Source of the DNA: a virus
Lineage: Duplodnaviria; Heunggongvirae; Uroviricota; Caudoviricetes
IMG/VR virus record: IMGVR_UViG_3300031884_000008
DNA length: 64,000 nt
Reading direction: 5' to 3' (one strand)
The notes under the pieces are model-generated. The model ran no database searches and was not told where the DNA came from. It saw only the letters and a program-made list of their open reading frames with translations. Within the stretch, counting starts at the first letter, position 1, and every line of letters begins with the position of its first letter. This document shows positions 2,670 to 47,593 of the stretch, piece after piece. A program made the position numbers and the translations under genes.

Positions 2670-3119
2670 ATGAAAAATATTGACCTAAACAAGTACAAGG
2701 ACTTTGTACAAGCTGTAACTAGCAAAGAAAGCAATGATCTGCAGGAGTTTCAGCGGCGTCTAGCCCAACTGGATCAAAACTTCGAAGACTATGGCCCTAA
2801 TGGTGAAATGCAGAATGGCCCAAACATTAACGTCCCGCTTCTAATCACTTCGGGACTAGGTCTGGGCAGTGAAGCAGGTGAATTCCAAGAAATCCTAAAG
2901 AAGCTTCTCTTTCAAGGAAAGCCTCTTACCGAAGAAAACGTATTCCACATGAAGCGTGAGCTAGGGGACGTTATCTGGTATTGGGTAAATGCGTGTCGCG
3001 CTCTTGGTCTTGACCCAAATGATGTTATCGTAGAGAACGTCAACAAGCTAGAATCTCGCTATCCAGGCGGAGAATTTGATCCGTTCTATAGCGAAAATCG
3101 TCAAGTCGGTGATCTGTAA
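2670..3119 (+). CDS. mazG: MazG-like nucleoside triphosphate pyrophosphohydrolase
   Basis: ELGDVIWYW...LGLDPNDVIVENVNKLESRYPGG matches the MazG NTP-PPase core. Confidence 0.7.
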   Translation: MKNIDLNKYKDFVQAVTSKESNDLQEFQRRLAQLDQNFEDYGPNGEMQNGPNINVPLLITSGLGLGSEAGEFQEILKKLLFQGKPLTEENVFHMKRELGDVIWYWVNACRALGLDPNDVIVENVNKLESRYPGGEFDPFYSENRQVGDL

Positions 3120-3135
3120 CACAGAAAGCAGTGCA

Positions 3136-3381
3136 ATGGTTGAAGATGATCATCTGAACCTACGAGCCATCGTAGTAGCTAAACGAATGAAATGGTTTGA
3201 GGAAAACATCTATGACATTCGTAGGAGCGAATTTGCTAAGGATCTATCAAAGTATAAGGTTTTGTTTGATCTACAATCAGGCTACTTTACTCTGAATGAA
3301 AAGTTGATTAACGAACTTGAATCCATTGCTACTGTTTTAGAAGAAAAATATAAGCCAGAAGACGCTTTTATGTTTGAATAG
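3136..3381 (+). CDS. hypothetical protein
   Basis: ORF 3076..3381; probable start at MVEDDHL. Confidence 0.3.
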   Translation: MVEDDHLNLRAIVVAKRMKWFEENIYDIRRSEFAKDLSKYKVLFDLQSGYFTLNEKLINELESIATVLEEKYKPEDAFMFE

Positions 3382-3429
3382 GAGCTGCGGTATGCGTTTC
3401 CTGATAAATACTATCAACAGGAAACGCAC

Positions 3430-4215
3430 ATGACCGCAAGCATTCTATCAACACCGACAAACTACAATCTTGAAGAAATCAAAGAAGCGTTCTTTGAAAA
3501 TATCAGACTGCGTTTAGGCGGAGATATAATCGACCTAGAAATTGATCCGCAGCACTATGAGGCTGCGTACAACTATACGATCAAAACTTATCGTCAACGT
3601 GCGCAAAACGCGACCCAAGAGTCATATACTCTGATGACGGTAATCAAAAACGTAGACACGTATACACTACCCAGTGACTTTATCAACGTGCGCTGTTTGT
3701 ATCGTAGAACAGTGGGTTTAGAAACAGGGCCATCGTCATCTTCGTTCGATCCATTCTCAAGCGCAATTCTCAATACGTATTTGTTGAATTACAACTATAC
3801 GGGCGGCATGGCGACGTATGACTTCTATGCAGGATACGTTGAGCTAGCAGCACGTATGTTCGGTGGATACTTGACATACACATTTGATCCGGTAACAAAG
3901 GTCCTACGTATTACTCGTGATTTTAAAGGTACGGGTGAACGCATTCTTATTTGGGCTGACATACAACGCCCAGAAGCTGTTCTTTTACAAGATCCGGGCG
4001 CCGGCGTTTGGATCGGAGACTTCATGCTTGCGGTGCTTAAAGGTATCATGGGTGAAGCTCGTGAAAAGTTTAGCACCGTTGTGGGTCCAGGTGGAGGAAC
4101 TACCCTAAACGGTACTGCTATGAAAGCAGAGTCAAAGGCTGATATGGAACGACTGCTAACTGAACTCAAGAAGTATGTGGATTATTCACAACCCCTGACA
4201 TGGATTCAAGGTTAA
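3430..4215 (+). CDS. T4 gp13-like neck protein
   Basis: N-terminal NYNLEEIKEAFFENIRLRLGGDIIDLEIDPQHYEAAYNYTIKTY follows the gp13 pattern (NP-N--EL---I--RLG-PII-VEL---Q------A---Y); ATAAATA box 20 nt upstream. Confidence 0.5.
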   Translation: MTASILSTPTNYNLEEIKEAFFENIRLRLGGDIIDLEIDPQHYEAAYNYTIKTYRQRAQNATQESYTLMTVIKNVDTYTLPSDFINVRCLYRRTVGLETGPSSSSFDPFSSAILNTYLLNYNYTGGMATYDFYAGYVELAARMFGGYLTYTFDPVTKVLRITRDFKGTGERILIWADIQRPEAVLLQDPGAGVWIGDFMLAVLKGIMGEAREKFSTVVGPGGGTTLNGTAMKAESKADMERLLTELKKYVDYSQPLTWIQG

Positions 4216-6256: not shown

Positions 6257-6355
6257 GGATTTTTTAATCCTACGCTAAATAAGTGTTAGAAACCTAGTGT
6301 TACTAGCATTAGGGGACAGGTGGTAAACCTCATAATTATACAAAGGAAAAATAAT

Positions 6356-9300
6356 ATGACACTAGTTTCTCCAGGTGTAGAAGTAACGATCATTGATCAA
6401 TCTCAATATCTTCCGGCCCCGCTCGGTACAATTCCTTTTGTTTTGCTCGCGACCGCAGCAAACAAAGCTGATCCTACTTCTACTTCTGTAGCAGTCGGAA
6501 CCACAGCAGCAAACGCAAACACGCTATTTCAAATCACTAGTCAACGTGATCTTGTAACTCTATATGGTAATCCATTCTTCTATACGACTTCGAATGGTAC
6601 TCCTATTCAAGGATACGAACTCAATGAATATGGTTTGCTAGCTGCATATTCTGCACTAGGTGTATCTAACTTAATTTACTGCCTAAGAGCAGATATCGAC
6701 CTCGCAAGTCTAGTAGGACAGACTGGTCGTCCTACTGGAAATCCAGCTGACGGAACTTATTGGTTAGATACTACTAACACCACTTGGGGCATTTACGAAT
6801 TTAATTCTACTACTGGGCAATTTGAAATTCAATCTCCGATTGAAATTAGCGATATTACGCTAGTATCTGCTGGATATCCAATTCAAAGCTTGGGTTCAGT
6901 GGGTGATTACGCGGTGATCGCAATTCCTAATTACACATATCCTTCTGCAAACAATGCTAAACAATTCTTCTATAAGAACTCATTTAATCAATGGGTGGCA
7001 ATCGGAACGTCTGCTTGGTTCGCTTCGGTTCCTACGGTTCAAGGTAGCAATTCACTACCAACGTTGAATTCAGGTGATTCTATCAGCATTGCGATGGGTG
7101 GCCCTGCAAACGGAGCGAATGGTCCCGTTTATACTATTACTGGACAGACTACTGTTTTTGGTCTAGCATCAGCTATTAATGCTTTACAGCGTCCGTATTT
7201 GTCAGCAAGTGTTGTAGGCGGAAATCTTCAACTTTTCTCTACACAAACTGGACAGGCTCCTAATAACAGCGTTCCGTTTTACATTAATATTTCAGGTACC
7301 GGCACAATGCTTACCTCCTTGGGCATTACCGCAGGTAATTATTTCCAACCGAATGTTGCCTATGGTACATCTGCACAGCAGCCATTATGGCAACAAGGTC
7401 AACTTTTCCCGAGCCCAACTGGATCAGTTTGGATCAAGATTGGATCTGCTGGCACTGGATTCAATCCAGTAATATCACAATGGGACAGCACACAGGCAGT
7501 TTGGTCTTCTAAAACTGTATCATTCGCTACTAGCGACGTTGCTGCGATCAATTCATTAGATTCAACTGGTGGAAAAAACATTCCAGCTGGAACGGTCTAT
7601 GCGCAATACAACTATGATGCTGATATCATCAATACTTCAGGCGTTCCTGGTTATCAAGCAGGTCCAATTTATTATTGGGAAAGACTTACATCTGGTCCAA
7701 CTGTAATTACTGGTTCTATGCAAGATCCTACATTTACTAATGGCCCATATACTAGTCATGTGTATGTTTCAATTCCAGGATCAAACGGATTGTCAGCACC
7801 TTATACGCTTAGTGTCGCAGATAACGCTACAGCGCTTGACTTTGTAACTGCTTGGACGACTGCTGCTATTCCATATACAACAGCTATGTTATTGGATACT
7901 GGAGAAATTCAATTGACTCACACTGAGGGTGGCGTGATCGTAGTAAATGACTTTGACACTAGTACATTCCAACCAAACGGTTTAATGAGTGACGCTGGAT
8001 TTGTTGTAAGTTATACTGAAGGAGTCAAAGTTGGTCCGTTTGTATCACCATTGATGACACCTACACCAACATATACTACTGGCGTAGGAACCGATTTGTC
8101 AATTAGCGTTACTAATAACTTCCAAAATTATCAAGTAAATCCTATTTCTTTTGCAAATCCAGGAACTGGTTATACTGTAGGAGACTTAGTAACATTCCCA
8201 GGTAGCCAATTAGGTGGTACTGGTACTGGTGGAATTACTCCATCAGGAAATGACTTGACTGTAAGAGTTGAAGAAACTTCAACAGGAGCAGTCACTAAAG
8301 TTTCTTACTATGCAGGCTCCGGCGCCGCAAACTACATGGTTGAATTGTCAAATTGGATACAATTTTACATGACTGCAAACGAAGGCGCACCAACTGCGGC
8401 TCCTGCTGATCTAACAAATTGGTTTTATAGTGTAGTAGATCAAGTAGATATTATGGTAAATACTACTACTGGATGGAAGGGCTATAGAAATGCATCATAC
8501 AGCAGTTCAGGTCTTCCTCTTCCATCAGGATCAAACATGACCGACCCTAACGGACCACTTATAAGTGCTTCAGAACCAATGCTGCAATCAAGCGGTCAGG
8601 CCCTTGCATATGGTGATATTTGGATCGACACTAGTGATCTAGAGAATTATCCTCTTATAAATCGTTGGGAAAGCGTAAATGGCGTAGATCAATGGGTAAG
8701 ATTAGATAATACTGATCAGACCAGTTCAACTGGTGTTCTGTTTGCAGATGCACGTTGGGCCACTACACAATACGTTAGCCCGGTTAATGATCCTATTCCA
8801 ACGATCAAGTCATTGTTGACTAGCAACTATCTTGATTTGGATGCACCAGATCCTACTTTATATCCAGTAGGTATGTTATTGTTCAATACTCGTCGTTCGG
8901 GATATAATGTAAAGCAATTCCGTTCTAACTACTTTAACAATAACAGATTCCCAGGAGCAAATATTCCCAATCAAACTGATGCCTGGGTAACAGAATCCGG
9001 GTTGCAAACAAACGGTGCTCCGTATATGGGCCGCAAGGCACAAAGAGCAATGGTTGTTAAGGCAATGCGTGAGGCAATCGACACAAATACTGCAATTCGT
9101 GACGAAGATAACGCATTCACCTTGATTGCAACTCCGAACTATCCTGAACTACAACCTAACATGGTTGTTCTCAATAACGATAGAGGAGACACTGGATTCA
9201 TCATCGGTGATACGCCGATGAGACTAGCAGATGATGCTACCTTAATTCAAGCATGGGCAACTAATGCTGCCAACGCAACGTCAACTGGTGAAGACGGTCT

Positions 9301-9982
9301 TGTAACTCGTGATACTTATTTGGGTCTGTTCTATCCATCAGGTATCACTTCTGACTTGAGCGGCAATCTTGTTGCAGTTCCTGCATCGCACATGATGATC
9401 AGAACATTCTTACGTAGTGATAGTGTTTCTTATCCATGGTTTGCTCCAGCAGGTACGCGTCGTGGTATCATAGACAACGCTACCAACATCGGATACGTTA
9501 GTGCAATGACGGGTGAATTTGTAGTAGTTAAGAATTCTAGAGTCGGAATTCGTGACGTTCTATATTCTAATCAAATCAACCCACTGGTATTCTTCACTGG
9601 AAATGGATTGCTAAACTACGGTAATAAAACTAGCTATGCATCAAATTCTGCACTTGATAGAGTTAACGTAGCAAGACTTATTGGATACATTCGTCGTCAA
9701 TTGACAGTGGCAGCAAGACCATTCGTATTCGAACCAAACGATAGTATCACTAGACAGCAAATCTCTGGTGTCATTCAAACCCTGTTTGTAGACCTAGTAG
9801 CAAAGCGCGGTGTATACGATTATTTGGTTGTATGTGATTTGTCAAACAACACACCAGCAAGAATCGACAGAAATGAACTTTGGGTAGACTGTGCGATTGA
9901 GCCGGTGAAAGCAGCAGAATTCATTTATATCCCAGTTCGCGTTCTTAATACTGGTGCATTGGGTAACAATGCTAGCTCATAA
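6356..9982 (+). CDS. tail sheath protein (T4 gp18-like) with large internal insertion
   Basis: N-terminus MTLVSPGVEVTIIDQS is near-identical in pattern to T4 gp18 MTLLSPGIELKETTVQS; followed directly by tube genes; ~1209 aa, about twice the T4 gp18 length. Confidence 0.7.
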   Translation: MTLVSPGVEVTIIDQSQYLPAPLGTIPFVLLATAANKADPTSTSVAVGTTAANANTLFQITSQRDLVTLYGNPFFYTTSNGTPIQGYELNEYGLLAAYSALGVSNLIYCLRADIDLASLVGQTGRPTGNPADGTYWLDTTNTTWGIYEFNSTTGQFEIQSPIEISDITLVSAGYPIQSLGSVGDYAVIAIPNYTYPSANNAKQFFYKNSFNQWVAIGTSAWFASVPTVQGSNSLPTLNSGDSISIAMGGPANGANGPVYTITGQTTVFGLASAINALQRPYLSASVVGGNLQLFSTQTGQAPNNSVPFYINISGTGTMLTSLGITAGNYFQPNVAYGTSAQQPLWQQGQLFPSPTGSVWIKIGSAGTGFNPVISQWDSTQAVWSSKTVSFATSDVAAINSLDSTGGKNIPAGTVYAQYNYDADIINTSGVPGYQAGPIYYWERLTSGPTVITGSMQDPTFTNGPYTSHVYVSIPGSNGLSAPYTLSVADNATALDFVTAWTTAAIPYTTAMLLDTGEIQLTHTEGGVIVVNDFDTSTFQPNGLMSDAGFVVSYTEGVKVGPFVSPLMTPTPTYTTGVGTDLSISVTNNFQNYQVNPISFANPGTGYTVGDLVTFPGSQLGGTGTGGITPSGNDLTVRVEETSTGAVTKVSYYAGSGAANYMVELSNWIQFYMTANEGAPTAAPADLTNWFYSVVDQVDIMVNTTTGWKGYRNASYSSSGLPLPSGSNMTDPNGPLISASEPMLQSSGQALAYGDIWIDTSDLENYPLINRWESVNGVDQWVRLDNTDQTSSTGVLFADARWATTQYVSPVNDPIPTIKSLLTSNYLDLDAPDPTLYPVGMLLFNTRRSGYNVKQFRSNYFNNNRFPGANIPNQTDAWVTESGLQTNGAPYMGRKAQRAMVVKAMREAIDTNTAIRDEDNAFTLIATPNYPELQPNMVVLNNDRGDTGFIIGDTPMRLADDATLIQAWATNAANATSTGEDGLVTRDTYLGLFYPSGITSDLSGNLVAVPASHMMIRTFLRSDSVSYPWFAPAGTRRGIIDNATNIGYVSAMTGEFVVVKNSRVGIRDVLYSNQINPLVFFTGNGLLNYGNKTSYASNSALDRVNVARLIGYIRRQLTVAARPFVFEPNDSITRQQISGVIQTLFVDLVAKRGVYDYLVVCDLSNNTPARIDRNELWVDCAIEPVKAAEFIYIPVRVLNTGALGNNASS

Positions 9983-37164: not shown

Positions 37165-40100
37165 ATGAAGCACGCGAAGGCTATTTTACTAGCAGTTACC
37201 GCTATAGTTTCCACACTCACACTCACAGCTTGCTTTACATCTAGACAACAAACTGCAAACGCAGAAAATATTCCAAACAATCCTGACTACAATTGGGACG
37301 TTCGTCCGATTTTGTCACAAAATTGCTTTGCTTGTCACGGGCAAGGAACACAGAAGGCTGGTCTACGGTTAGACATACAAAAAGCCGCTTACGATTCCAT
37401 ACCAGAAGACAAAACCAAACACGCTTTTGTTCCGGGTAATCCTAGTAAAAGCGAGGCATTTAAACGCATTACTTCGACTGATGCAGACTACAGAATGCCA
37501 CCTAAAGATTCTCATAAAACCCTGTCTGCACATGAAATCGCAATTATAAAGCGATGGATTGAACAAGGTGCTCACTATAAACAACACTGGGCATACATAA
37601 CACCGACAGTAGTAAAGCCAGAAAGAACTAAATGGGACAAGCAAGCTGTCAACGCCATTGATCGATATATCTATGCCAAATTAGCTACAGAAGGGTTATC
37701 TCCTTCTGCGGAAGCGGACAAAGAAACGCTTATAAATCGTGTTTATCTAGACCTAACTGGACTTCCTCCCTCGCTTCAAGAAGTAGATGCATTTATCAAT
37801 GACACCTCTCCTAATGCTTACGAGAAGATAGTAGATCATCTTTTATCATCTACCGAGTATGCAGAACGCCAAACAAATATTTGGATGGATGTTGCTCGGT
37901 ATGCAGACAGCCGCGGAGGACTAAATGACGGGGAACGAGGAATCAGTTTCCCGTATCGTGATTGGGTCATCAATGCGTTTAAACGCAACATGCCTTATGA
38001 TGAGTTTGTGACCTGGCAGCTTGCCGGCGATAAACTTAATAATGGTCATCCGACTCGTGAGCAATTACTTGCAAGTGCCTTCCTTAAAGAAGGTCGTCAA
38101 GATTCAGAGGGCGGATCAATTGATGAAGAATTTAGAACTAATTATGTCCAAGAAAGAACAGAATTAATAGGTAAAGACTTTTTGGGTCTAACCGTTGGGT
38201 GCGCCAAATGCCACAATCACAAATATGATGTGATTGCCCAATCAGATTACTATTCATTAGCTGGATTCTTTAATCAGATGGACGAGCGAGGACAAGGATC
38301 CGGTTCTCGTGGTACACCCGGCGGCGCCACAATCGAATGGCCGACTCCGCTGCAATCAAAAAGACTTGAGGCCGCCCATGCAATTACAGTAGCTAAAGAA
38401 CAAGCTTATCAAGTTGCTTTACAATCTGCGCAGATCAATAAAATAGCATTAGACACAAACCGAACAACATTTATACAATCATCTATTCAAGCAGACACAC
38501 AAGCCTATTATCCATTAGATGCAGGGTACAAAGATTCATTTGATGAACTGTACCTAGATCCGCAACCAACGGCACCTGGTGAACCTCTACCTAATCAAAA
38601 AAATAACTTTCCCGGATTAACTGCGGCTCAAGTTACTGCCATATTACAAAATAAAATTCTTGCAGATGTAAAGGTCGGTAAACCAACTCCTAGTATGACA
38701 CCTAAAGATGATTCTATGTCTCCTAAAACCATCAAGTCTTCAGATATAAAGGACCCTAAAAAAGCACCCCTTCGCCGCTCACGATTCGGCGGTATGGACG
38801 GAGACATTGCTGCAATGAAGGCGGACCCTAATCTTCCGAGAATAGCTTCTCATGAAATCGATTGGGCTATGGAACAGCTTGTAGCATCCGGATTTACTGA
38901 TGATCGTTTAGGAGACCCACAACGTATCATGAAACGTCAACTTCCACAATGGATTCATGAAGATTCACTGTTGTGGACAGATGCAGGGATTCAGGGTGAA
39001 AAGCGTGGATTTGTAAGTAATGTAAAGTTTGTTTCCGGTCACAAGGGACAGGGAATTCAACTAAAAGATTCAGTTTTTGCTGCGGACAAAAGTGTAGGTA
39101 TGTTTGAAAGAACTCAACCATACACATTAGATTTTTGGTTGAAGCTTCCAAAGAAACCATATTACGACAATACTCGTCCATTAGGACCGTCTGCATCTAT
39201 AATTTATAACAACGGCGGCATTGAAGGGCTTGGTTATGAATTAACCATGTCTAATAATAAAATGGCATATTCTATTACTCACCAAGCTCCAACCGACATG
39301 CTTAGAATTTCTACGATTCAAGATGTTCCCACAGGTCGTTGGGTTCATATAACTTCTACTTATGACGGTAACTCCAAAGCGGCTGGTATGCATCTATATT
39401 TTGATGGTGTAGAACAAAAAGCTCAAATTGATCATGACCACTTAACACGTAGCGCATTTCCGCGCGGCGGAAACAGTCAGTTTGTGAGTTATTTTGGGTT
39501 GTCTGCTGGAGTTAACTTTAATAGACCGGAATTAGTAGACGGCGCCATTGATGAGCTACGTGTGATTACACGGGCATTGACTCCTACGGAAATTACTTAT
39601 CTGCAGGATCCTGCACTACTTAAACAAGTTCCGGCACAGCAAGCAATATCTGATATGAAGTTAATTATGGCTGAACTGGATCCTGCGGTTCAACGAGCCT
39701 GGCAAGAGATGACAGATGCACGACTTGCTGAACAACGCATAGAAACTCCGATCTATCGTGTCATGGTTGCAGGAGATCAGGCTATTCCTCGTAAAAACTT
39801 CGTGTTAGATCGTGGGGTCTATAACAGCTATCTACAAGAAGTAAAACCTCAGGCACCGAACCGAGTATTTGCATGGAACGAAACTTTACCTAGAGACCGT
39901 TTGGGACTAACTGAATGGATGTTTGATCCGAAAAATCCGCTCGTTGCTAGGGTTTATGTAAACCGCATATGGCAAAATCATTTCGGTACTGGTATAGTTC
40001 AAACGGTAGATGATTTTGGTACACAAGGAACTAATCCAACTCATTCGGAACTACTTGATTACCTAGCCGTAGAGTTTATTAGGTCTGGTTGGGATATAAA

Positions 40101-40836
40101 GCACATACAAAAACTAATAGTTATGTCTGCAACTTATCGTCAAAATTCTAATATTACGCATGACGCATTAGAAAAAGATCCACGAAATTTTCTTCTAGAA
40201 CGAGGACCACGTTTTAGAATGCCAGCAGAAGTTATTCGTGATAATGCATTAGCTGCCTCTGGTCTGTTACTTAAGAAAGTGGGCGGAGATGCAGTATTCC
40301 CATATGCTCCAGATGCAATTTGGGATGGTGTAGCGCAAGGTGCGGTTATTTATCCTACAAATGAACCGGATGATCAAATGCACAGACGATCTATGTATAC
40401 CTATATAAAGCGGAACTCACCAGTAGCCAACTTAGTACCGTTTGACATGCCAGATCGCTACAATGCACAAGTTCTACGTCCAGTGTCAACTACACCTCTG
40501 CAATCATTGGTTATGTTGAATGACGTTCAATTTATGGAAGCTTATCGTAAGCTATCTGAAAGAGCAATCAAGTCTTCTGCAAATCAAGATCAACAACTGA
40601 TAACGATGTTCCGTTTGGCTGTTCGGCGCCATCCAAATGATAATGAACTATCAGTATTGAGGAAATATCGTGTTGCTGAAATTAGCAGAATGCAGAATTC
40701 CCCTGATGAAGTAAAAAAGATACTTTCTATGGGGGTTTCTCCTACCGATACTTCGATTGATCCGGCCCAACTCGCAGCAATGACTATGGTCACTGCAAGC
40801 GTCATGAATACCCCAGACGCATATACTTTGCACTAA
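37165..40836 (+). CDS. PSCyt1 (planctomycete cytochrome c) - DUF1549/PSCyt2 - LamG-like - DUF1553/PSD1 multidomain lipoprotein
   Basis: Lipobox LTAC; DVRPILSQNCFACHGQGTQKAGLRLD (PSCyt1 CxxCH); LDLTGLPPSLQEVDAFI...WMDVARYADS...PYDEFVTWQLAGD (DUF1549); TTPLQSLVMLNDVQFMEAYRKLSER (DUF1553). Confidence 0.7.
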   Translation: MKHAKAILLAVTAIVSTLTLTACFTSRQQTANAENIPNNPDYNWDVRPILSQNCFACHGQGTQKAGLRLDIQKAAYDSIPEDKTKHAFVPGNPSKSEAFKRITSTDADYRMPPKDSHKTLSAHEIAIIKRWIEQGAHYKQHWAYITPTVVKPERTKWDKQAVNAIDRYIYAKLATEGLSPSAEADKETLINRVYLDLTGLPPSLQEVDAFINDTSPNAYEKIVDHLLSSTEYAERQTNIWMDVARYADSRGGLNDGERGISFPYRDWVINAFKRNMPYDEFVTWQLAGDKLNNGHPTREQLLASAFLKEGRQDSEGGSIDEEFRTNYVQERTELIGKDFLGLTVGCAKCHNHKYDVIAQSDYYSLAGFFNQMDERGQGSGSRGTPGGATIEWPTPLQSKRLEAAHAITVAKEQAYQVALQSAQINKIALDTNRTTFIQSSIQADTQAYYPLDAGYKDSFDELYLDPQPTAPGEPLPNQKNNFPGLTAAQVTAILQNKILADVKVGKPTPSMTPKDDSMSPKTIKSSDIKDPKKAPLRRSRFGGMDGDIAAMKADPNLPRIASHEIDWAMEQLVASGFTDDRLGDPQRIMKRQLPQWIHEDSLLWTDAGIQGEKRGFVSNVKFVSGHKGQGIQLKDSVFAADKSVGMFERTQPYTLDFWLKLPKKPYYDNTRPLGPSASIIYNNGGIEGLGYELTMSNNKMAYSITHQAPTDMLRISTIQDVPTGRWVHITSTYDGNSKAAGMHLYFDGVEQKAQIDHDHLTRSAFPRGGNSQFVSYFGLSAGVNFNRPELVDGAIDELRVITRALTPTEITYLQDPALLKQVPAQQAISDMKLIMAELDPAVQRAWQEMTDARLAEQRIETPIYRVMVAGDQAIPRKNFVLDRGVYNSYLQEVKPQAPNRVFAWNETLPRDRLGLTEWMFDPKNPLVARVYVNRIWQNHFGTGIVQTVDDFGTQGTNPTHSELLDYLAVEFIRSGWDIKHIQKLIVMSATYRQNSNITHDALEKDPRNFLLERGPRFRMPAEVIRDNALAASGLLLKKVGGDAVFPYAPDAIWDGVAQGAVIYPTNEPDDQMHRRSMYTYIKRNSPVANLVPFDMPDRYNAQVLRPVSTTPLQSLVMLNDVQFMEAYRKLSERAIKSSANQDQQLITMFRLAVRRHPNDNELSVLRKYRVAEISRMQNSPDEVKKILSMGVSPTDTSIDPAQLAAMTMVTASVMNTPDAYTLH

Positions 40837-40847
40837 GAGGAATAAAC

Positions 40848-42311
40848 ATGAATAATGATCCAAATGAATTAATAAATTTTGCCCGCCGGTCACTTTTAGG
40901 CACGAGTATGGGATTGGGTGTGATAGCCGGCGCCGAATTATTAGGTGCTACCAAATCACAAGCAGCCAGTGCTGCACCTTCCAGCGAGACTGGCCCAGAT
41001 TTAGGTAAGTTAACTACAGGTCAATTTCCAGCAAGAGCAAAGCGTGTAATTGACATTCACATGAAAGGAGCAGTATCCCAAATTGATACTTTTGATTATA
41101 AGCCAGAAGTTATCAAGCGCCATGGGCAAGAAATTCCACCTTCTGTAAAGGGTCATGGCAAAATATCATCAATGTCTAATGGACAAACTTCTTTCCCTCT
41201 TATGGGTCCTATTGCTCCATATAAACAATATGGTCAATGTGGTCGTTGGGTTTCAGACCTAATGCCACATATAGGGTCTATATCAGATGATCTAACCTTC
41301 ATTCATTCTATATGGACTCCCCAAGTTAATCACGATCCAGCAGACATTCTCATGCATACTGGGTTTCAATTAGCGGGCCGCCCTGCCGCTGGAGCATGGG
41401 TTAATTATGCATTAGGGACTGATAACTCTAATCTCCCTTCATATGTAGTCATGAAATCTCAGTTCCAATCAGCAGGGGTTGGCGCTACTCAGGCTACTTG
41501 GTCAGCAGGATTTTTGCCCTCTAATCACCAAGGTGTTGAATTTCGTTCTGGTAATTCTCCTGTTCTTTATGTAAGCAATCCAGATGGCATTAGTCGTGAA
41601 GAACGAAGAAGTCAAATTGATCTTATCGGTGAATTATCGCGCTATCAGTATCAGACGACCGATGACCCAGAAGTCTTAGCCAAAATTGCTCAATATGAAA
41701 TGGCATATCGTATGCAAGATTCTGTACCTGAGGTAACTGATCTATCTGATGAACCACAATATATACTCGATATGTATGGTCCTCAGGTTCATCAACCAGG
41801 TAGCTTTGCTCGCAATTGCCTATTAACACGTCGTCTTATTGAACGCGGTGTTAAGTATGTCAACCTAATTCAAGTTGGATGGGATCACCATAATGGTATT
41901 GCCCGCCGACATCCTAGTGACTGTTGGGCAGTAGATCAGCCATCTGCTGCTTTGGTGACGGATTTAAAGCAGCGAGGACTTCTAGATGATACTCTTGTAA
42001 CTTGGAAGGGTGAATTCGGTAGAACTGTATACGCGCAAGGAGGAATAAATCCAAACTGCGGGCGTGACCATCACGGAGGAAACTTTACGATGTGGATGGC
42101 CGGAGGCGGAACAAAACCTGGCATCGAATACGGCAAATCAGATGATTTCTCTTATAATGTTGTGGAAAATCCAGTAGAAGTTCACGATTTAAATGCTACT
42201 GTGTTATATCTTTTAGGAATTGATCACAAACAACTTACATACCATTATCAAGGTAGAGATTTCCGTTTAACTGATACTGCAGGTAAAGTAGTTCAAGGAA
42301 TAATTGCTTAA
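40848..42311 (+). CDS. DUF1501 (sulfatase-like) protein with Tat signal, canonical partner of DUF1549/DUF1553 proteins
   Basis: RRSLLG twin-arginine motif; DIHMKGAVSQIDTFDYKPE...GRDHHGGNFTMWMAGGG. Confidence 0.7.
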   Translation: MNNDPNELINFARRSLLGTSMGLGVIAGAELLGATKSQAASAAPSSETGPDLGKLTTGQFPARAKRVIDIHMKGAVSQIDTFDYKPEVIKRHGQEIPPSVKGHGKISSMSNGQTSFPLMGPIAPYKQYGQCGRWVSDLMPHIGSISDDLTFIHSIWTPQVNHDPADILMHTGFQLAGRPAAGAWVNYALGTDNSNLPSYVVMKSQFQSAGVGATQATWSAGFLPSNHQGVEFRSGNSPVLYVSNPDGISREERRSQIDLIGELSRYQYQTTDDPEVLAKIAQYEMAYRMQDSVPEVTDLSDEPQYILDMYGPQVHQPGSFARNCLLTRRLIERGVKYVNLIQVGWDHHNGIARRHPSDCWAVDQPSAALVTDLKQRGLLDDTLVTWKGEFGRTVYAQGGINPNCGRDHHGGNFTMWMAGGGTKPGIEYGKSDDFSYNVVENPVEVHDLNATVLYLLGIDHKQLTYHYQGRDFRLTDTAGKVVQGIIA

Positions 42312-42487: not shown

Positions 42488-42793
42488 ATGGACATGATCA
42501 CACAAGAACTGAAATCGCTGCACGAGGAATTCACTTCCCGTGTTTTTCAACTGCGTCTGGTTGACGGTGTTCGACGTGATTGGGCAGTTTCTTGGGCTCT
42601 GCTGCAAGATCAAAGTCCCGACTATGCCGAATGCTATGTTCCTCCGATCTTTCCGATTAAAGGACAAGACCTGCTGGAAACTGGTATGAAGCCTGGCAAG
42701 GAAGTTGGTCAACGGCTGCAAGTCATGCGTGATGCTTGGGTTAAATCTCGTTTTACTATGACTAAGGAAGACCTGCTGTCCCATAATAATTGA
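42488..42793 (+). pseudogene. C-terminal remnant of a CCA-adding tRNA nucleotidyltransferase
   Basis: PIKGQDLLETGMKPGKEVGQRLQVMRDAWVKSRFTMTKEDLL resembles the CCA-enzyme C-terminal tail; only ~100 aa; GC ~48%, above neighbours. Confidence 0.4.
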
Positions 42794-42843
42794 CATATAC
42801 TGCATTAAGTTGTAGTATATGTCATTATTATAAAGGAGACATT

Positions 42844-43377
42844 ATGAGTGCTGACCTTCCTACGCTAGTCCCTAGCGTAGTCTTTAAGACTCGGGTTCGT
42901 GACGATAGTATCGAAGGACCCAATCCATATCGCTGGCAAGAAGTAACTTCATTTGACTATTTCGCAGGAAAGCGAGTTGTGCTATTTGCGCTGCCTGGAG
43001 CATTTACCCCTACTTGCTCTACTTACCAACTTCCGGGTTTTGAAAATAACTATCAACAATTTAAGGATTTGGGTATTGACGAAATCTACTGCTTGTCAGT
43101 GAACGATTCGTTCGTCATGAACAAGTGGGCTCAAGACCAAAATCTAAAGAACGTTAAGGTTATTCCGGATGGTTCTGGTGAATTCACTAGCAAGATGAAC
43201 ATGCTTGTTGCTAAGGATAATTTGGGTTTCGGTGTTCGTTCTTGGCGATATGCGGTAATCGTTGACAATGGACGCATTGAAAAGTGGTTTATTGAACCTG
43301 GCATCGAACACAATTGCGATACGGATCCCTACGGTGAATCTTCACCTGAAAACATCCTCGTATATCTGAAAAACTAA
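42844..43377 (+). CDS. peroxiredoxin (Prx5-like, AhpC/TSA family)
   Basis: VLFALPGAFTPTCS peroxidatic Cys motif; AGGAG RBS. Confidence 0.7.
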   Translation: MSADLPTLVPSVVFKTRVRDDSIEGPNPYRWQEVTSFDYFAGKRVVLFALPGAFTPTCSTYQLPGFENNYQQFKDLGIDEIYCLSVNDSFVMNKWAQDQNLKNVKVIPDGSGEFTSKMNMLVAKDNLGFGVRSWRYAVIVDNGRIEKWFIEPGIEHNCDTDPYGESSPENILVYLKN

Positions 43378-43905
43378 CAACCGCGGACAAGCTTCGCATA
43401 AAAAAAGAAGAGGAAACCCGCATCATCTTTCTCTACGGTAGTGCAATACATAAGGCACTAGAGCGCAATGAATTCCAACATACTCCTTTTAAAACTACGA
43501 CAGGAGGATGCGGTAATCCATGGGTAGTGTGTGATATGCTCGATAAGCAGGAAGTTGTATTTGCCCTATTGAAATACGATTTTCGAATCATGACGCCCAA
43601 CGAACCTCTCTACAAAGAATACGATAAACGAGCCAAAACACTAGATTACGATGAAGCAGATTGGATTGATGAAGATGAAGACCTGTAAAATTTTCGTACC
43701 AACCTAGGTTTTCCATCAAATTAATAAGGCAATACGAGAATCGGGAATCAAACACCTGCCGTATCAAAAAAAGTTTGATGGGTACAACATTGAATTTATG
43801 ACTAATGATCATCCTCTAATTTGTTATCTTATTCTTAAATACGACGTGAAATATGAAATATGAAATATGAAATGTCATAAATATACACAGTATGAAAGAT
43901 TCAGT

Positions 43906-44802
43906 ATGTCTGTAGTAATTTTGACCAAAAGAGAAAAGGATTATGAGAATGCTCGTCTCCTAGAAAGTTTTGCCAACCAAGGTATAAACGTACAGTTTGC
44001 CAATCCAGAAAACTTTGATTTAGTTGTTAGGCAAGGTATAGAAACTGGTATAAATTACAATGGATTGACCCTTGAGAAACCCAAACTTTTGTTGACTAGA
44101 ACTGGATCAGGTACAAATGAGTTTGCAAGGGCTTTGATCAGACAGTTTGAAGAAGAAGGAACACCTTGTGTAAATTCCTCTGAGGGAATTGAGATTGCTA
44201 AAGATAAACTTAGAACATCACAATTACTAGTGAGCAATGGAATTCCAATTCCAAATACGATGCTAGTTAGGTTTCCAGTTGAAGTTGATATTGTAGATAG
44301 AAATATTGGTTGGCCTTGCATAGTAAAAGTGATTAGTGGAAGCTATGGTGAAGGTGTATATCTATGTGAAAGAAAAAAAGATTTCAAAAAGCTTATGGAC
44401 TTCACTGATAGTCTAAAAAGTGCAAAAACCTTAATAGTACAAGAATACGTAGGACACCGCCCAGGTGAAGACCTCAGAGTGTTTGTTGTGGGCGGCAAGG
44501 TGATTGGGGCAATGAAACGTATTGCTCCAGTCGGTGACTTCCGTGCTAATATTTCAAATGGTGGTCACGGTGAAACATTTGAGGTCACCGACGAAATTGA
44601 ATACATTGCGAGAGAGACTGCTAGAGTTTGCGGATTGCAAATTGCAGGGATAGACCTCTTGTTTGATGAAAACGGATTTAAAGTTTGTGAAGCAAACTCA
44701 GCTCCAGGCTTTGAGGGCTTCGAACGATATTGCAATATAAATGTAGCAGACCACATCGTAGGATTTGTTAACTTCAAGTTAAACGGGTTAACCCGCAATT
44801 GA
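43906..44802 (+). CDS. RimK-like ATP-grasp ligase (alpha-L-glutamate ligase family)
   Basis: GWPCIVKVISGSYGEGV...IVQEYVGHRPGEDLRVFVVGGKVIGAMKRIAPVGDFRANISNGG aligns with E. coli RimK. Confidence 0.65.
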   Translation: MSVVILTKREKDYENARLLESFANQGINVQFANPENFDLVVRQGIETGINYNGLTLEKPKLLLTRTGSGTNEFARALIRQFEEEGTPCVNSSEGIEIAKDKLRTSQLLVSNGIPIPNTMLVRFPVEVDIVDRNIGWPCIVKVISGSYGEGVYLCERKKDFKKLMDFTDSLKSAKTLIVQEYVGHRPGEDLRVFVVGGKVIGAMKRIAPVGDFRANISNGGHGETFEVTDEIEYIARETARVCGLQIAGIDLLFDENGFKVCEANSAPGFEGFERYCNINVADHIVGFVNFKLNGLTRN

Positions 44803-44825
44803 CACAAGTAAAATAAGGAACTAAA

Positions 44826-45041
44826 ATGTCAAAGATGTATAAGAGTGAGGCTTCTTCTACGAAGGTAGATCACATTCAACCCATTACGGTTGAAAAACAA
44901 ATCGAGCTACTTGAATCAAAGATTCGTAGACTAGCAGAGACAGTAGCTAATGTTCAGTCTGAGTTGGGCCTAATGCAGAGGCATTATCGCCGCCAAAAAA
45001 CTGACATATCTAATTTAAATACTGCTGTTCGCAATAGATAA
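44826..45041 (+). CDS. hypothetical coiled-coil protein
   Basis: 71-aa ORF. Confidence 0.3.
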   Translation: MSKMYKSEASSTKVDHIQPITVEKQIELLESKIRRLAETVANVQSELGLMQRHYRRQKTDISNLNTAVRNR

Positions 45042-45137
45042 ATAAATTTGTAGCATGGTGCTTGCTCCTTGATAGCGTTAGAGTAGTTGGGATATTGTCG
45101 AGACATCCGTGAACTACATTTTTATTTATCTTTGTTA

Positions 45138-45166
45138 TTGACAATGGTTTGATGCTACTATATTAT
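45138..45166 (+). promoter_or_regulatory. sigma70-type promoter (TTGACA-N17-TATTAT) reading into the GC-rich island
   Basis: ttgTTGACAatggtttgatgctactaTATTATag. Confidence 0.5.
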
Positions 45167-45258
45167 AGATATGTCAATCAGACATTTATGATGGAGAAAA
45201 GCTATTTCATTTTATTTAAAATCGGGCACGAATTGGCGCGTTACTTCTAAGGATGCGA

Positions 45259-45339
45259 TGGATTTGCATGAGCATCTTCCAGCAGGCAACTACACGGTTG
45301 GTCAGGACATGCAAGGTAATTACGGGCTGGGCTGGTAAA
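45259..45339 (+). pseudogene. 27-codon ORF at the left edge of the GC-rich island (possible truncated toxin remnant)
   Basis: MDLHEHLPAGNYTVGQDMQGNYGLGW; begins where GC content jumps. Confidence 0.25.
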
Positions 45340-45344
45340 AGAAA

Positions 45345-45803
45345 ATGAACACTACGACGACATGCACGGAATGTGGCAATGGCCACTATGAGGAGTACAT
45401 CCTCCCGGAGCACCTGGAGGATGTCGGCGGAATTGAGGTGTGCCTGAAAAACACCGTCCACGTGCGTCGCTGCGCTGGATGTGCGGACGAGATGACCATG
45501 ATCCCGGACATGCGGGGTCTAGTGCGGACGGTGGCTGTGGCTCGTTGCCTGCTGCCGATCAAACTGAACGCGGGTGATATGCGTCTGCTGCGCCGTGCTT
45601 TGGACATGACGCAAAAGGAATTTGCCGAGACGATGGGTATCACGGCTGAGACAGCCTCTCGTTGGGAGAAGGATGGGGGAAAGGGTGTGGGTGACTATTC
45701 GGATCATCTTGTCCGCCACAACGCCTGCGCCCTGCTGGCTGCCGATGCCCCGGGTGAAGGAAAAGATCAACTACGACTATACTGCCCTGCTTTAGGAAAA
45801 TAA
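45345..45803 (+). CDS. MqsA-like antitoxin (N-terminal CxxC...CxxC zinc ribbon + C-terminal HTH-XRE)
   Basis: CTECGNG...CAGCADE zinc ribbon; MTQKEFAETMGITAETASRWE HTH; island GC ~55% vs ~38% flanks. Confidence 0.55.
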   Translation: MNTTTTCTECGNGHYEEYILPEHLEDVGGIEVCLKNTVHVRRCAGCADEMTMIPDMRGLVRTVAVARCLLPIKLNAGDMRLLRRALDMTQKEFAETMGITAETASRWEKDGGKGVGDYSDHLVRHNACALLAADAPGEGKDQLRLYCPALGK

Positions 45804-46279
45804 TGACTCGAAATTGGATTGATGACGTAAAGGGTACTATTCCGGAATATGCGGAATCTGTGGCTGAAACGCTACAATACTCCATAGATGATGCGGTAGC
45901 ACAGTTAGATGAAATAACTGTTCACGGTTGTGCTCTTGCTGCTGCTACCGCAACTGCTAATGGTGGTTTGGCATTTGAAATTTCTATGAATGGTCCACTT
46001 TTCGGATCCGACGAAAGAGAAATAGCAAAGAAAGTAGCAGTGCTTCTAGTTATGGAAGCGACATGCATGTCATATCCTCAATATACTGGTGGATTGACCA
46101 ATGATTGGAATCAACCAAATCACAACGCATATGCTTTTGCAGCAGCCATCGCTATGCAGCACGAAAAATTAATCAATTATTATTCGAGTCTGCTAACAAA
46201 CGGCGGCATAAATGTTAAGGCAAAATCAGCAATTGTGAAAATTGCTGCTGCGATAGCCGCTATTGGTAAGATTACTTAA
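45803..46279 (+). CDS. hypothetical protein, Ala-rich C-terminus
   Basis: TAATG overlap with preceding gene. Confidence 0.4.
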   Translation: MTRNWIDDVKGTIPEYAESVAETLQYSIDDAVAQLDEITVHGCALAAATATANGGLAFEISMNGPLFGSDEREIAKKVAVLLVMEATCMSYPQYTGGLTNDWNQPNHNAYAFAAAIAMQHEKLINYYSSLLTNGGINVKAKSAIVKIAAAIAAIGKIT

Positions 46280-46841
46280 TACCGATTAGCATAAAACGAT
46301 TATACCCTCCGTCGGAGTATCTAATTTCTTTCGTCCCCGAAAAAAGATACTTTGATAGAGGGTATTTTTTTGTTAAGGCATCTAATGACTCATTAGGATT
46401 GACGCACTTCCAAATATCATCATTGTCAATGGTTACATCACTAGATTGAATACATACAAGTTTTCCGTAATCCAAATTTTCAAACCATTCATTTGTGGAC
46501 ATATGTTCAGGTGAACAGTTGACAACAATATCGAAAGAAGCTAAATCATACGTACTGGCGTCAGCAATGATGTTAGTGACAGTCGAGTCGATACACCAAG
46601 CATCGGTGATTCTGTCTGCAATAGGCTTCGTGCTTGCATCTATATCAATGCCCAAAATATGTTGATATAAATTAGGATTGCGTGTAAGAAGCATAAATGA
46701 TAGTACGTTGTACCAACTACCTAAGATAGCAACTTTTGCGCTTTTAGGGACGTAGGGTTCAAGTTCATTGCAGAGCCAAAGTTTACTTTGAATCTGTCCG
46801 TGAGAAAATGCATCGAAATTCATAATCGTATTTATATGCAA
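46272..46841 (-). CDS. hypothetical protein (possible Rossmann-fold methyltransferase-like)
   Basis: KVAILGSWYN...ILGIDID weakly resembles MTase motifs I/II. Confidence 0.35.
   Translation of the reverse strand: MHINTIMNFDAFSHGQIQSKLWLCNELEPYVPKSAKVAILGSWYNVLSFMLLTRNPNLYQHILGIDIDASTKPIADRITDAWCIDSTVTNIIADASTYDLASFDIVVNCSPEHMSTNEWFENLDYGKLVCIQSSDVTIDNDDIWKCVNPNESLDALTKKYPLSKYLFSGTKEIRYSDGGYNRFMLIGIK
46302..46371. terminator. bidirectional terminator between convergent genes
   Basis: ATACCCTC...GAGGGTAT long imperfect hairpin followed by T7. Confidence 0.55.
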
Positions 46842-46848
46842 AAAAGGC

Positions 46849-46877
46849 TTGACAACTGTTTTTAGAAGATGTATAAA
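46849..46877 (+). promoter_or_regulatory. near-consensus sigma70 promoter TTGACA-N17-TATAAAT
   Basis: gcTTGACAactgtttttagaagatgTATAAATaag. Confidence 0.55.
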
Positions 46878-47138
46878 TAAGACTGTAGAGTTGATTGAAA
46901 CGAAAGTTTGAAAAAACCGAAGTTAAAATTAACGTATTATTAACCAGGACTAAATAAGTTTAATATGAACAACACTTGTAACATATCGATGAAGCAGCAT
47001 AACCAACTCTGGGGCCAATTAGCCTCATTGTGCGTCGTTGCGGATGCGGTATACCCTACAAGCATTCGCGGTACCTTTAATCTAAGAGAAGGGTTCCGGG
47101 ATTAGATAAACAGTTCATATAAAACTAGTTTATTTGGT

Positions 47139-47170
47139 CCCTGGGAATCGAAAGATTTTCAGGGTTTTTT
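47139..47170 (+). terminator. rho-independent terminator
   Basis: CCCTG-ggaatcgaaagattttc-CAGGG followed by T6. Confidence 0.65.
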
Positions 47171-47519
47171 ATTAGTTGGAGGCAAGAATCTCTGACAGTT
47201 AGGATGAAAGACCTAACACAAGTGCAAGTCGGAACGAGGCTGCAAAGCACTTTAAAAAATGAACGGGCGGTGTTAGGGATGAAATCTGCGGAGGTAACGC
47301 AGAAAGTAAAAACTTTCAGTGAAGGGCATTGTGACCCTTCGCAAGTGGGGCAGTCCGAAATGCTGGACAACATATCCTCGCTTGTCAATAAAAAGCTAAC
47401 TATTATTATATGAAAACATAGGACTTAAACACAGTCACTGGGCTACGAACCTCGTTGAAGCAACACGTCAATGTGTTTTCTTATAATCATAGTATTCGTA
47501 TATAAATATCAAGTATTAT

Positions 47520-47593
47520 TGTCCCTTCGTCTAATGGTAAGACATCCGTTTTTGGTGCGGATTATCGAGGTTCGAGTCCTTGGGGGACAGCCA
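47520..47593 (+). tRNA. tRNA-Gln(UUG)
   Basis: Cloverleaf by eye; anticodon loop TTTTGGT; CCA encoded; TATAAATA 13 nt upstream. Confidence 0.7.

Follow-up and report, generated by a model that had tools for sequence, protein, structure and literature searches.

The 64,000-nucleotide stretch of IMG/VR virus record IMGVR_UViG_3300031884_000008 (Caudoviricetes), hereafter the window, raises the question of how a GC-rich tract around positions 45138–45803 came to encode, inside a phage genome, a 152-amino-acid (aa) protein resembling the antitoxin MqsA, and whether this protein could disarm a bacterial toxin. An earlier note, made from the letters alone, had described a GC-rich island opening with a host-type promoter and a truncated open reading frame (ORF), followed by an orphan MqsA-like antitoxin of the kind expected of a counter-defence gene recently captured from a host. 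Our analyses indicated with very high confidence that the GC-rich DNA originated as an internal fragment of an alphaproteobacterial toxin–antitoxin operon and entered the phage by a microhomology event, which replaced the interior of a conserved phage ATPase gene, p353. A functional anti-toxin role of the truncated antitoxin is proposed tentatively, as a possibility whose chances we place somewhat under even, and the statement as a whole, capture and function taken together, is held at that same tentative level.

The compositional break is pronounced. Mean GC content of the whole window is 41.6%, and in 200-bp intervals it rises from 0.32–0.36 (45000–45299) to 0.55–0.625 (45300–45799) before settling at ~0.42, in agreement with the jump that had been reported. 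The 424-bp segment 45322–45745 has 58.5% GC, the top value in the 64 kb (the runner-up has 52.6%), which corresponds to z = 4.3 relative to 424-bp intervals across the stretch (mean 41.7% GC, standard deviation 3.9). The limits formerly given to the island, about 45200 to 45800, hold for the rise in GC but not for the foreign DNA, which occupies only 45322–45748; the stretch 45222–45311, with 52% GC, is phage coding sequence. A misassembly, which the earlier note had named as a possible refutation, would explain why the change in GC is so abrupt and why GenBank holds no phage relative. Nevertheless, five further contigs (L001–L005), obtained from other sequencing runs and a Joint Genome Institute (JGI) metagenome, share the junctions at 99.5–99.98% identity and carry single-nucleotide polymorphisms (SNPs) of their own. 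Because six independent assemblies have the same junctions, misassembly can be excluded; moreover, the junctions bear microhomology and the flanks match a sister contig, L045, so that an assembly chimera of phage and bacterial reads has a negligible probability.

The DNA on both sides of the foreign segment belongs to p353, which in related phages encodes a 353-aa AAA+ ATPase (Pfam AAA, E = 5e-9) directly before a homolog of the phage gene p158. A total of 4,647 homologs of p353 were recovered at E ≤ 1e-30, many of them on 300–512-kb contigs and some carrying the JGI label "DNA polymerase III delta prime subunit". The sister contig L045 preserves the uninterrupted state: its nucleotides 1–180 equal window 45142–45321 (100%), its nucleotides 1078–2876 equal window 45746–47544 (99.5%), and between these matching flanks lies an intact p353 (L045 63–1127); the copy in another relative, L029, is located at 2879–3940. 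In the window, ~900 bp of the p353 interior has been swapped for ~427 bp of bacterial DNA (45322–45748), and the two alleles can be told apart by the junction k-mers GGTAATTACGGGCTGGGC and GGTAATTTCTTCCTCAGCC. No second copy of p353 was found within the 64 kb.

Both ends of the disrupted gene are still recognizable. The 5′ remnant (45204–45321, + strand) is 100% identical to L045 as far as 45321, and tblastn aligned residues 1–42 of the L029 p353 with window 45204–45329 (E = 1e-13, 67% identity). The short ORF at 45258–45338, composed of 26 codons and a stop, reads MDLHEHLPAGNYTVGQDMQGNY followed by GLGW*, the last five codons being in bacterial DNA, and the intact 336-aa copies P0121 and P0122 are called from the Met equivalent to ATG 45258. 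Decay of the stump through a frameshift or a lost start was considered and rejected, as the intact L045 has the same ATT codon and gene callers use the ATG at 45258. The ORF fragment described earlier does exist, but it is the 5′ end of p353 and does not belong to a captured island. The same correction applies to the sigma-70-type promoter TTGACA-N17-TATTAT (45138–45166, + strand), which is present as described but is native to p353, lying in a 30.6% GC segment outside the foreign DNA and being identical in sequence in L045. Perfect TTGACA-N16-18-TAWWAT sites on the + strand number five, against 0.29 expected by chance, and comparison of the five promoter regions revealed no extended similarity past the hexamers. 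The 3′ remnant (45745–45795, + strand) consists of the last 16 codons of p353, MPRVKEKINYDYTALL (45745–45792), and the TAG stop, in a frame different from that of the chimeric ORF; it matches the C-terminus of the L029 p353, LTRVKQISHYDYSSLL, and ends at the same stop. The alignment with the relative L025 had pointed to the upstream gene p71, whose 3′ end would then have supplied the tail of the ORF; this reading was rejected, since L029 and L045 show that the tail is the p353 3′ end.

The breakpoints could be located to within a few nucleotides. The left junction was placed by a three-way comparison of L045, the window and the bacterial loci L006, L009 and L017: homology to L006 at the DNA level begins at 45312 and identity to L045 stops at 45321, the shared stretch being the microhomology CAAGGTAATT (45312–45321, + strand), in which p353 and the bacterial toxin gene, at its 3′ end, agree. 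The phage CAAGGTAATT stands opposite CAAAGTGATA or AAGGTCATTAC of the bacterial toxin genes. At the right junction, the microhomology is CCCGGG (45749–45754, + strand), where identity to L045 resumes at 45746–45749, with a mismatch at 45748, and homology to the bacterial antitoxin ends at ~45747–45752, fading over ~45750–45777. Microhomology at both junctions, ~10 nt on the left and 5–6 nt on the right, suggests illegitimate microhomology-mediated recombination or template switching. A direct repeat, 45334–45358/45753–45777 (18/25), was estimated to be at chance level.

The captured DNA (45322–45748, + strand; ~427 bp, 58.5% GC, absent from L045) is an internal piece of a two-gene operon. Over window 45312–45777, it shows 73% nucleotide identity to a Phenylobacterium locus (L006 5968–6414). 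A search of 5.8 billion proteins gave one 100%-identical 143-aa match (P0001, from the sister contigs), and all others were bacterial proteins of 167–190 aa, the best of them, with 61–68% identity, coming from Phenylobacterium (proteins of 182–185 aa) and other Alphaproteobacteria. The antitoxin family has at least 234 members, among which the phage copy is the sole short one. In 13 of the 15 alphaproteobacterial loci examined, an ORF of 96–128 aa lies directly upstream on the same strand, its end often overlapping the antitoxin start by 4 bp, as seen in L006 and L009. All of the 10 upstream partners tested matched Pfam DUF4258 (PF14076) at profile positions 1–68 of 71 (best E = 3e-8). The toxin profile gave no match against PDB. 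DUF4258 is listed as a type II toxin family of the RelE/ParE superfamily with the BECR fold, and fusions of DUF4258 with MqsA are known (PMC11980606).

The trace of such a partner survives in the window. A toxin 3′ relic, KVITGWAGKRK* (45313–45348, + strand), ends in the 4 bp (ATGA) with which the antitoxin gene begins, the arrangement of the bacterial operons; by tblastn, KVITGWAGKR is identical in 10 of 10 residues to the C-terminus of the L006 partner. A profile match would need more residues than the relic offers. What was captured thus amounts to the final 8–11 codons of the toxin gene and, of the ~180 codons of the antitoxin gene, the first ~135. Further toxin sequence in 45220–45311 was sought and rejected, as tblastn and local DNA alignment stop at the last 10–11 codons and the stretch is p353. 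On account of the toxin C-terminus, the ATGA overlap and the identity to L006, the GC-rich DNA can be assigned to the interior of a DUF4258/MqsA-type operon. Apart from these few codons, no intact toxin gene was found in the 64 kb, which bears out the claim that the toxin is absent. The expectation of an MqsR- or HigB-like toxin beside close homologs was right in that a toxin-family gene lies upstream in the bacterial relatives, but the family is DUF4258 and not MqsR; likewise, the proposed capture from a host holds for the bacterial origin but not for acquisition of an intact gene, both bacterial genes having been cut by illegitimate recombination. In addition, a conserved palindrome, TTGAY-N5-RTCAA, lies ~60 nt upstream of the toxin start and overlaps a TTGACA-like hexamer (L006, L009, L012–L018, L022), and it probably serves these DUF4258/MqsA-like operons as their operator. 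The bacterial modules have IS1595- and IS1-type transposase genes as neighbours, together with a DNA methylase gene (L006 1013–1954 and 4642–5532; L009 6748–7761 and 3221–4357), and such mobile surroundings may make their pick-up likelier.

The resulting 152-aa ORF (45345–45803, + strand) is a chimera, in which residues 1 to ~136 are MqsA-like and ~137–152 stem from out-of-frame translation of the p353 3′ end. The bacterial part amounts to the N-terminal three quarters of the antitoxin, with a zinc ribbon (~7–52), a linker helix and a helix-turn-helix (HTH) domain of the XRE type (~76–134), and the last 7–16 residues form a non-bacterial tail. A C/T difference at 45774 determines its length: CGA, found in the window and L045, gives 152 aa and TGA, found in L001–L004, gives 143 aa. 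The four cysteines C7, C10, C43 and C46 are invariant or nearly so in alignments of 11 and 80 sequences. The protein matched TIGR03830, the MqsA family, at E = 3.7e-12 over profile positions 1–101 of 127, and HTH_3 (PF01381) at E = 1.4e-6 with 28.6 bits, above the 23-bit cut-off. Both curated cut-offs for MqsA were missed, with 46.1 against 61.8 bits for TIGR03830 and 16.4 against 30 bits for PF15731. Among full-length relatives, P0008 lies above the TIGR03830 cut-off (67.2) and P0004 below it (54.8), and the NCBI name for the relative P0061 is MqsA-family antitoxin. A sequence-profile search of PDB with the family reached MqsA at E = 0.3 only.

The AlphaFold2 model, built on the 80-sequence alignment, had a predicted local distance difference test score (pLDDT) of 86, falling to 56–68 in the tail, and comprised a beta-rich zinc-ribbon domain (14–52, pLDDT >90), a linker helix and helices at 76–134. 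In a Foldseek search against PDB, 3GN5_A (E = 8.2e-5) and 3GN5_B (E = 3.5e-4), the chains of MqsA, were the sole matches at E ≤ 0.001, with 135–137 aligned columns. The fold alignment to 3GN5 gave a TM-score of 0.33–0.37 and an identity of 20–21%, the orientation of the domains being different; a low TM-score is expected because the two domains are joined by a flexible linker. According to the model, the phage protein keeps the whole zinc ribbon and the whole HTH-XRE domain, that is, the canonical MqsA core, and the ~135 retained residues approximate the full length of canonical MqsA (131–133 residues in the 3GN5 chains). For MqsA itself, toxin binding has been assigned to the N-terminal zinc domain, and dimerisation as well as DNA binding to the C-terminal HTH domain (PMC2791442). 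What was lost is a family-specific C-terminal part of ~45–50 residues, which forms a helix and a beta-hairpin in the full-length model. A terminal -AA, present in 74 of 79 bacterial family members with the preceding residues and the length varying, is also gone from the phage copy; we take this ending to resemble the ssrA/ClpX-type C-terminal recognition signal, and it may mark the antitoxins for ClpXP.

Since the curated cut-offs were missed and no toxin is adjacent, we refer to an MqsA-like fragment rather than to a certified family member. The MqsA architecture attributed to the protein by the earlier note therefore survives for the zinc ribbon and the HTH domain and fails for a complete antitoxin, given the missing C-terminal part and the junk tail; similarly, the family and structure searches that it had suggested returned the TIGR03830 and 3GN5 matches but no score at the curated level. 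Between an MqsA-like protein and a generic phage XRE repressor, the TIGR03830 match, 3GN5 as the only PDB fold match and relatives above the NCBIfam cut-off all argue for the former.

Whether such a fragment could be of use to the phage depends first on its expression. We infer that transcription proceeds from the native p353 promoter at 45138. The ORF from ATG 45258 stops at 45336–45338, 6 nt before the antitoxin ATG at 45345, which makes translational reinitiation plausible, and another short frame runs to the ATGA overlap inherited from the operon. Judging from this layout, the chimeric protein of 143 or 152 aa is probably made. As the donor DNA must have been in a cell together with replicating phage, at least one host, or an element in that host, carried the cognate toxin. 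During infection of a host with a donor-type module, the phage protein would bind free DUF4258 toxin, and alongside or instead of this it could occupy the host operon at its TTGAY-N5-RTCAA operator. Having lost the -AA tail, it may escape the proteolysis that normally frees the toxin, so that the toxin would stay silent and toxin-mediated abortive infection or growth arrest would be blunted. The knock-out of p353 costs the phage a gene with thousands of homologs, yet the lineage persists, which we count in favour of such a role. The most specific form of the proposal, a new anti-defence gene in which a degron-less truncated antitoxin acts as a protease-resistant decoy silencing a DUF4258 defence in a jumbo phage, with an alphaproteobacterial host indicated, must be called unlikely.

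The age of the capture bears on this question. GC content at third codon positions (GC3) is 0.68 in the captured coding part, compared with 0.46–0.81 in bacterial homologs and 0.27–0.35 in phage genes. A bacterial-like GC3 with no visible amelioration implies that the capture is recent, as the earlier note had supposed. The flanks differ from those of the intact sister by 0.5%, and divergence among the contigs with the island reaches 0.45%. Recent as it is, the island has lasted through some diversification, and the lineage in which it is fixed has been sampled several times.

A considerable number of observations weigh against an anti-toxin function. The Shine-Dalgarno context of ATG 45345 is weak (AAAGAAA). 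The lost C-terminal residues are confidently modelled in the full-length protein (pLDDT 93–95), with a predicted TM-score (pTM) of 0.87 for the full-length form and 0.78 for the phage form, and they are strongly conserved (Y137 94%, I142 95%, M145 99%, W176 100%); they may thus be needed for folding or toxin binding. DUF4258 itself is listed without tested activity (PMC11980606). Of the 65 related phage loci, 21 of them viral and 44 from metagenomes, none has a homolog; only contigs that match the window at 99.5% identity or more carry the gene, and among 2.9 million IMG/VR viral contigs only three distant full-length family members were found, one of them paired with a DUF4258-like ORF. There was no evidence of purifying selection in the phage, where the bacterial part holds one synonymous SNP; amelioration is lacking, and the tail is polymorphic, ending at 143 or 152 aa. 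Finally, the cutting of both bacterial genes gives the locus the look of an accident.

Several of these features would be expected if the island were a neutral scar, that is, filler DNA from microhomology-mediated repair or template switching in a dispensable p353, with a product that is inert or tolerated, and we consider this a real possibility, though clearly short of an even chance. Microhomology at both ends and a net deletion with an unrelated insertion fit such an event, as do the truncation of two bacterial genes with loss of the conserved C-terminal domain, the polymorphic junk tail and the lack of a selection signal. The dispensability of p353 is suggested by its absence beside p158 in some relatives; in L025 (2377–3059; same contig as L051), p71 and p158 abut with no p353 between them, so that the position or presence of p353 at this site varies among related phages. 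In addition, the bacterial module of L006 and L009 sits among insertion sequence elements, in movement-prone DNA, and public data contain the intact and the disrupted lineage at about the same frequency. On the other hand, a random piece of ~430 bp would rarely be a sense-oriented antitoxin core with a start codon behind a strong promoter, the chance of which is roughly 1e-3 to 1e-2 by rough estimate, without computation; the breakpoints keep exactly the canonical MqsA core; and the highly conserved p353 was lost without the lineage vanishing.

The disruption of p353 could also have been the selected change, if the ATPase or its DNA set off a host defence or was attacked by one (an abortive-infection sensor, CRISPR or restriction, for example), the bacterial DNA then being a by-product of repair. 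Deletion of a targeted or sensed gene is an established route by which phages escape defence; ~900 bp of a conserved gene is gone here, and the region is rich in homing endonuclease genes, which make breaks. However, nothing ties p353 to defence, as PADLOC yielded only generic HTH and P-loop matches, and this explanation leaves the use of an expressible antitoxin core as filler unaccounted for; the intact sister lineage, moreover, coexists with the disrupted one. We therefore regard selection for p353 loss as improbable. A regulator of phage genes or a generic XRE repressor, rather than an antitoxin, would be in keeping with the intact HTH-XRE domain and with weak PHROG matches to phage repressor families. 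Yet the operator TTGAY-N5-RTCAA occurs in the window at chance level, with one exact site (inside tRNA-His) against 0.49 expected and 16 one-mismatch sites against 12 expected; the gene is newly arrived and absent from all relatives, and its best matches are of the MqsA family and not phage repressors, which makes a regulatory role highly improbable.

With respect to known systems, Escherichia coli MqsA (YgiT; 3GN5, 3O9X; TIGR03830, PF15731) has the same order of domains, a four-Cys zinc ribbon followed by HTH-XRE, and the phage protein aligns colinearly with both the family profile and 3GN5. The bacterial relatives also resemble mqsRA in having the toxin gene first and an overlapping antitoxin start (PMC6918082). 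In contrast to MqsA, the source family is paired with DUF4258 instead of MqsR and carries, at the C-terminus, an additional domain of ~50 aa and an -AA end, both lost from the phage copy; the phage itself has no toxin gene. The alphaproteobacterial DUF4258/MqsA-like modules, for example Phenylobacterium P0004 with its 104-aa partner, represent the direct source family; relative to them, the phage piece lies inside a phage gene, stands behind a phage promoter and is fused to 7–16 unrelated residues.

Phage-encoded orphan antitoxins or mimics that neutralise toxin–antitoxin defences have been described, including DarG-like proteins of T4-like phages (PMC11257639) and a chimallivirus DarG2-like protein (PMC13309987); further precedents are the ICP1 antitoxin mimic (PMC10760071), pseudo-ToxI (PMC3594212) and T4 Dmd. 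The locus studied here shares with them an antitoxin homolog without its toxin, in a phage genome and in an expressible position, and the logic proposed for it is theirs: antitoxin activity supplied by the phage would keep the host toxin silent. Those examples have been proven by experiment and recur in different phage groups, whereas here a truncated type II antitoxin of the MqsA type is limited to one near-clonal lineage; its origin cost the phage a gene, and it is known from sequence. Foreign base composition and insertion between conserved phage genes are likewise shared with phage morons; the insert of the window differs from these in having no promoter of its own and no terminator, none of terminator-like form being found from 45803 to the next gene, and in being a gene fragment and not a cassette.

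If the protein is functional, it would be the first MqsA-type orphan antitoxin (type II, zinc-ribbon/HTH) shown on a phage and evidence of DUF4258 modules acting against phages. It would further provide a rare natural before-and-after pair for the birth of a counter-defence gene from host DNA, at the cost of a conserved phage gene. Orphan antitoxins on phages are as such already known; what is unusual here is that the states before (L045) and after (the window) coexist. Even if the product is inert, the locus is a clean and datable capture of host DNA in an uncultivated jumbo phage, with exact breakpoints, and the 427-bp fragment gives a clue to the host, a donor of ~59% GC resembling Alphaproteobacteria. 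In either case the annotation changes, the 152-aa protein having turned out to be chimeric and the ORF fragment before it to be what is left of the start of a phage ATPase gene.

The rest of the window is phage-like, with a tail sheath gene at 6320–9982 (PHROG 10581, E = 1.5e-209), a tail tube and a ribonucleotide reductase. Against GenBank phages, megablast of 44000–47000 and tblastn of a 487-aa neighbouring protein gave no match, and tblastn of the 152-aa protein gave HTH-level matches only. Uncultivated relatives were found in IMG/VR and metagenomes, and as some of them sit on contigs of 300–500 kb, the window can be placed in a jumbo-phage lineage. Immediately downstream of the chimeric ORF, p158 (45803–46279, + strand) is a phage gene with weak likeness to AhpD (only NCBIfam TIGR00777, E = 4.9e-5), and its position is syntenic in L025, L029, L045 and many other loci. 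The genes flanking the island further upstream encode a peroxiredoxin-like protein (42790–43377; AhpC-TSA/Redoxin on the L001 copy) and a RimK-type ATP-grasp ligase (43867–44802, E = 1.7e-46); together with the AhpD-like gene, these may form a redox-related accessory cluster. Between the p71 stop and the p353 promoter, there is an inverted repeat of 18 nt (45036–45053/45114–45131, 89% complementary, 60-nt loop), and an Rfam scan of 44800–45900 gave no match.

Two larger genes lie before this cluster, one (37165–40836) for a 1223-aa protein with PSCyt1, PSCyt2, Laminin_G_3 and PSD1 domains and the other (40848–42311) for the 487-aa protein, which carries DUF1501, the Pfam calls having been made on the identical genes of contig L001. 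Pairs of PSCyt1/PSD1 and DUF1501 genes are typical of Planctomycetes and Verrucomicrobia. As their GC3 is phage-like (0.27–0.30), the pair looks like old host-derived cargo. Downstream, 28 tRNA genes that cover most amino acids lie between 47520 and 62393, and among them are GIY-YIG, HNH and NUMOD3 endonuclease-like ORFs, a PTH2 peptidyl-tRNA hydrolase gene and a TilS-like ATP_bind_3 gene. With so many tRNAs, a phage of 42% GC could be better equipped for a high-GC host.

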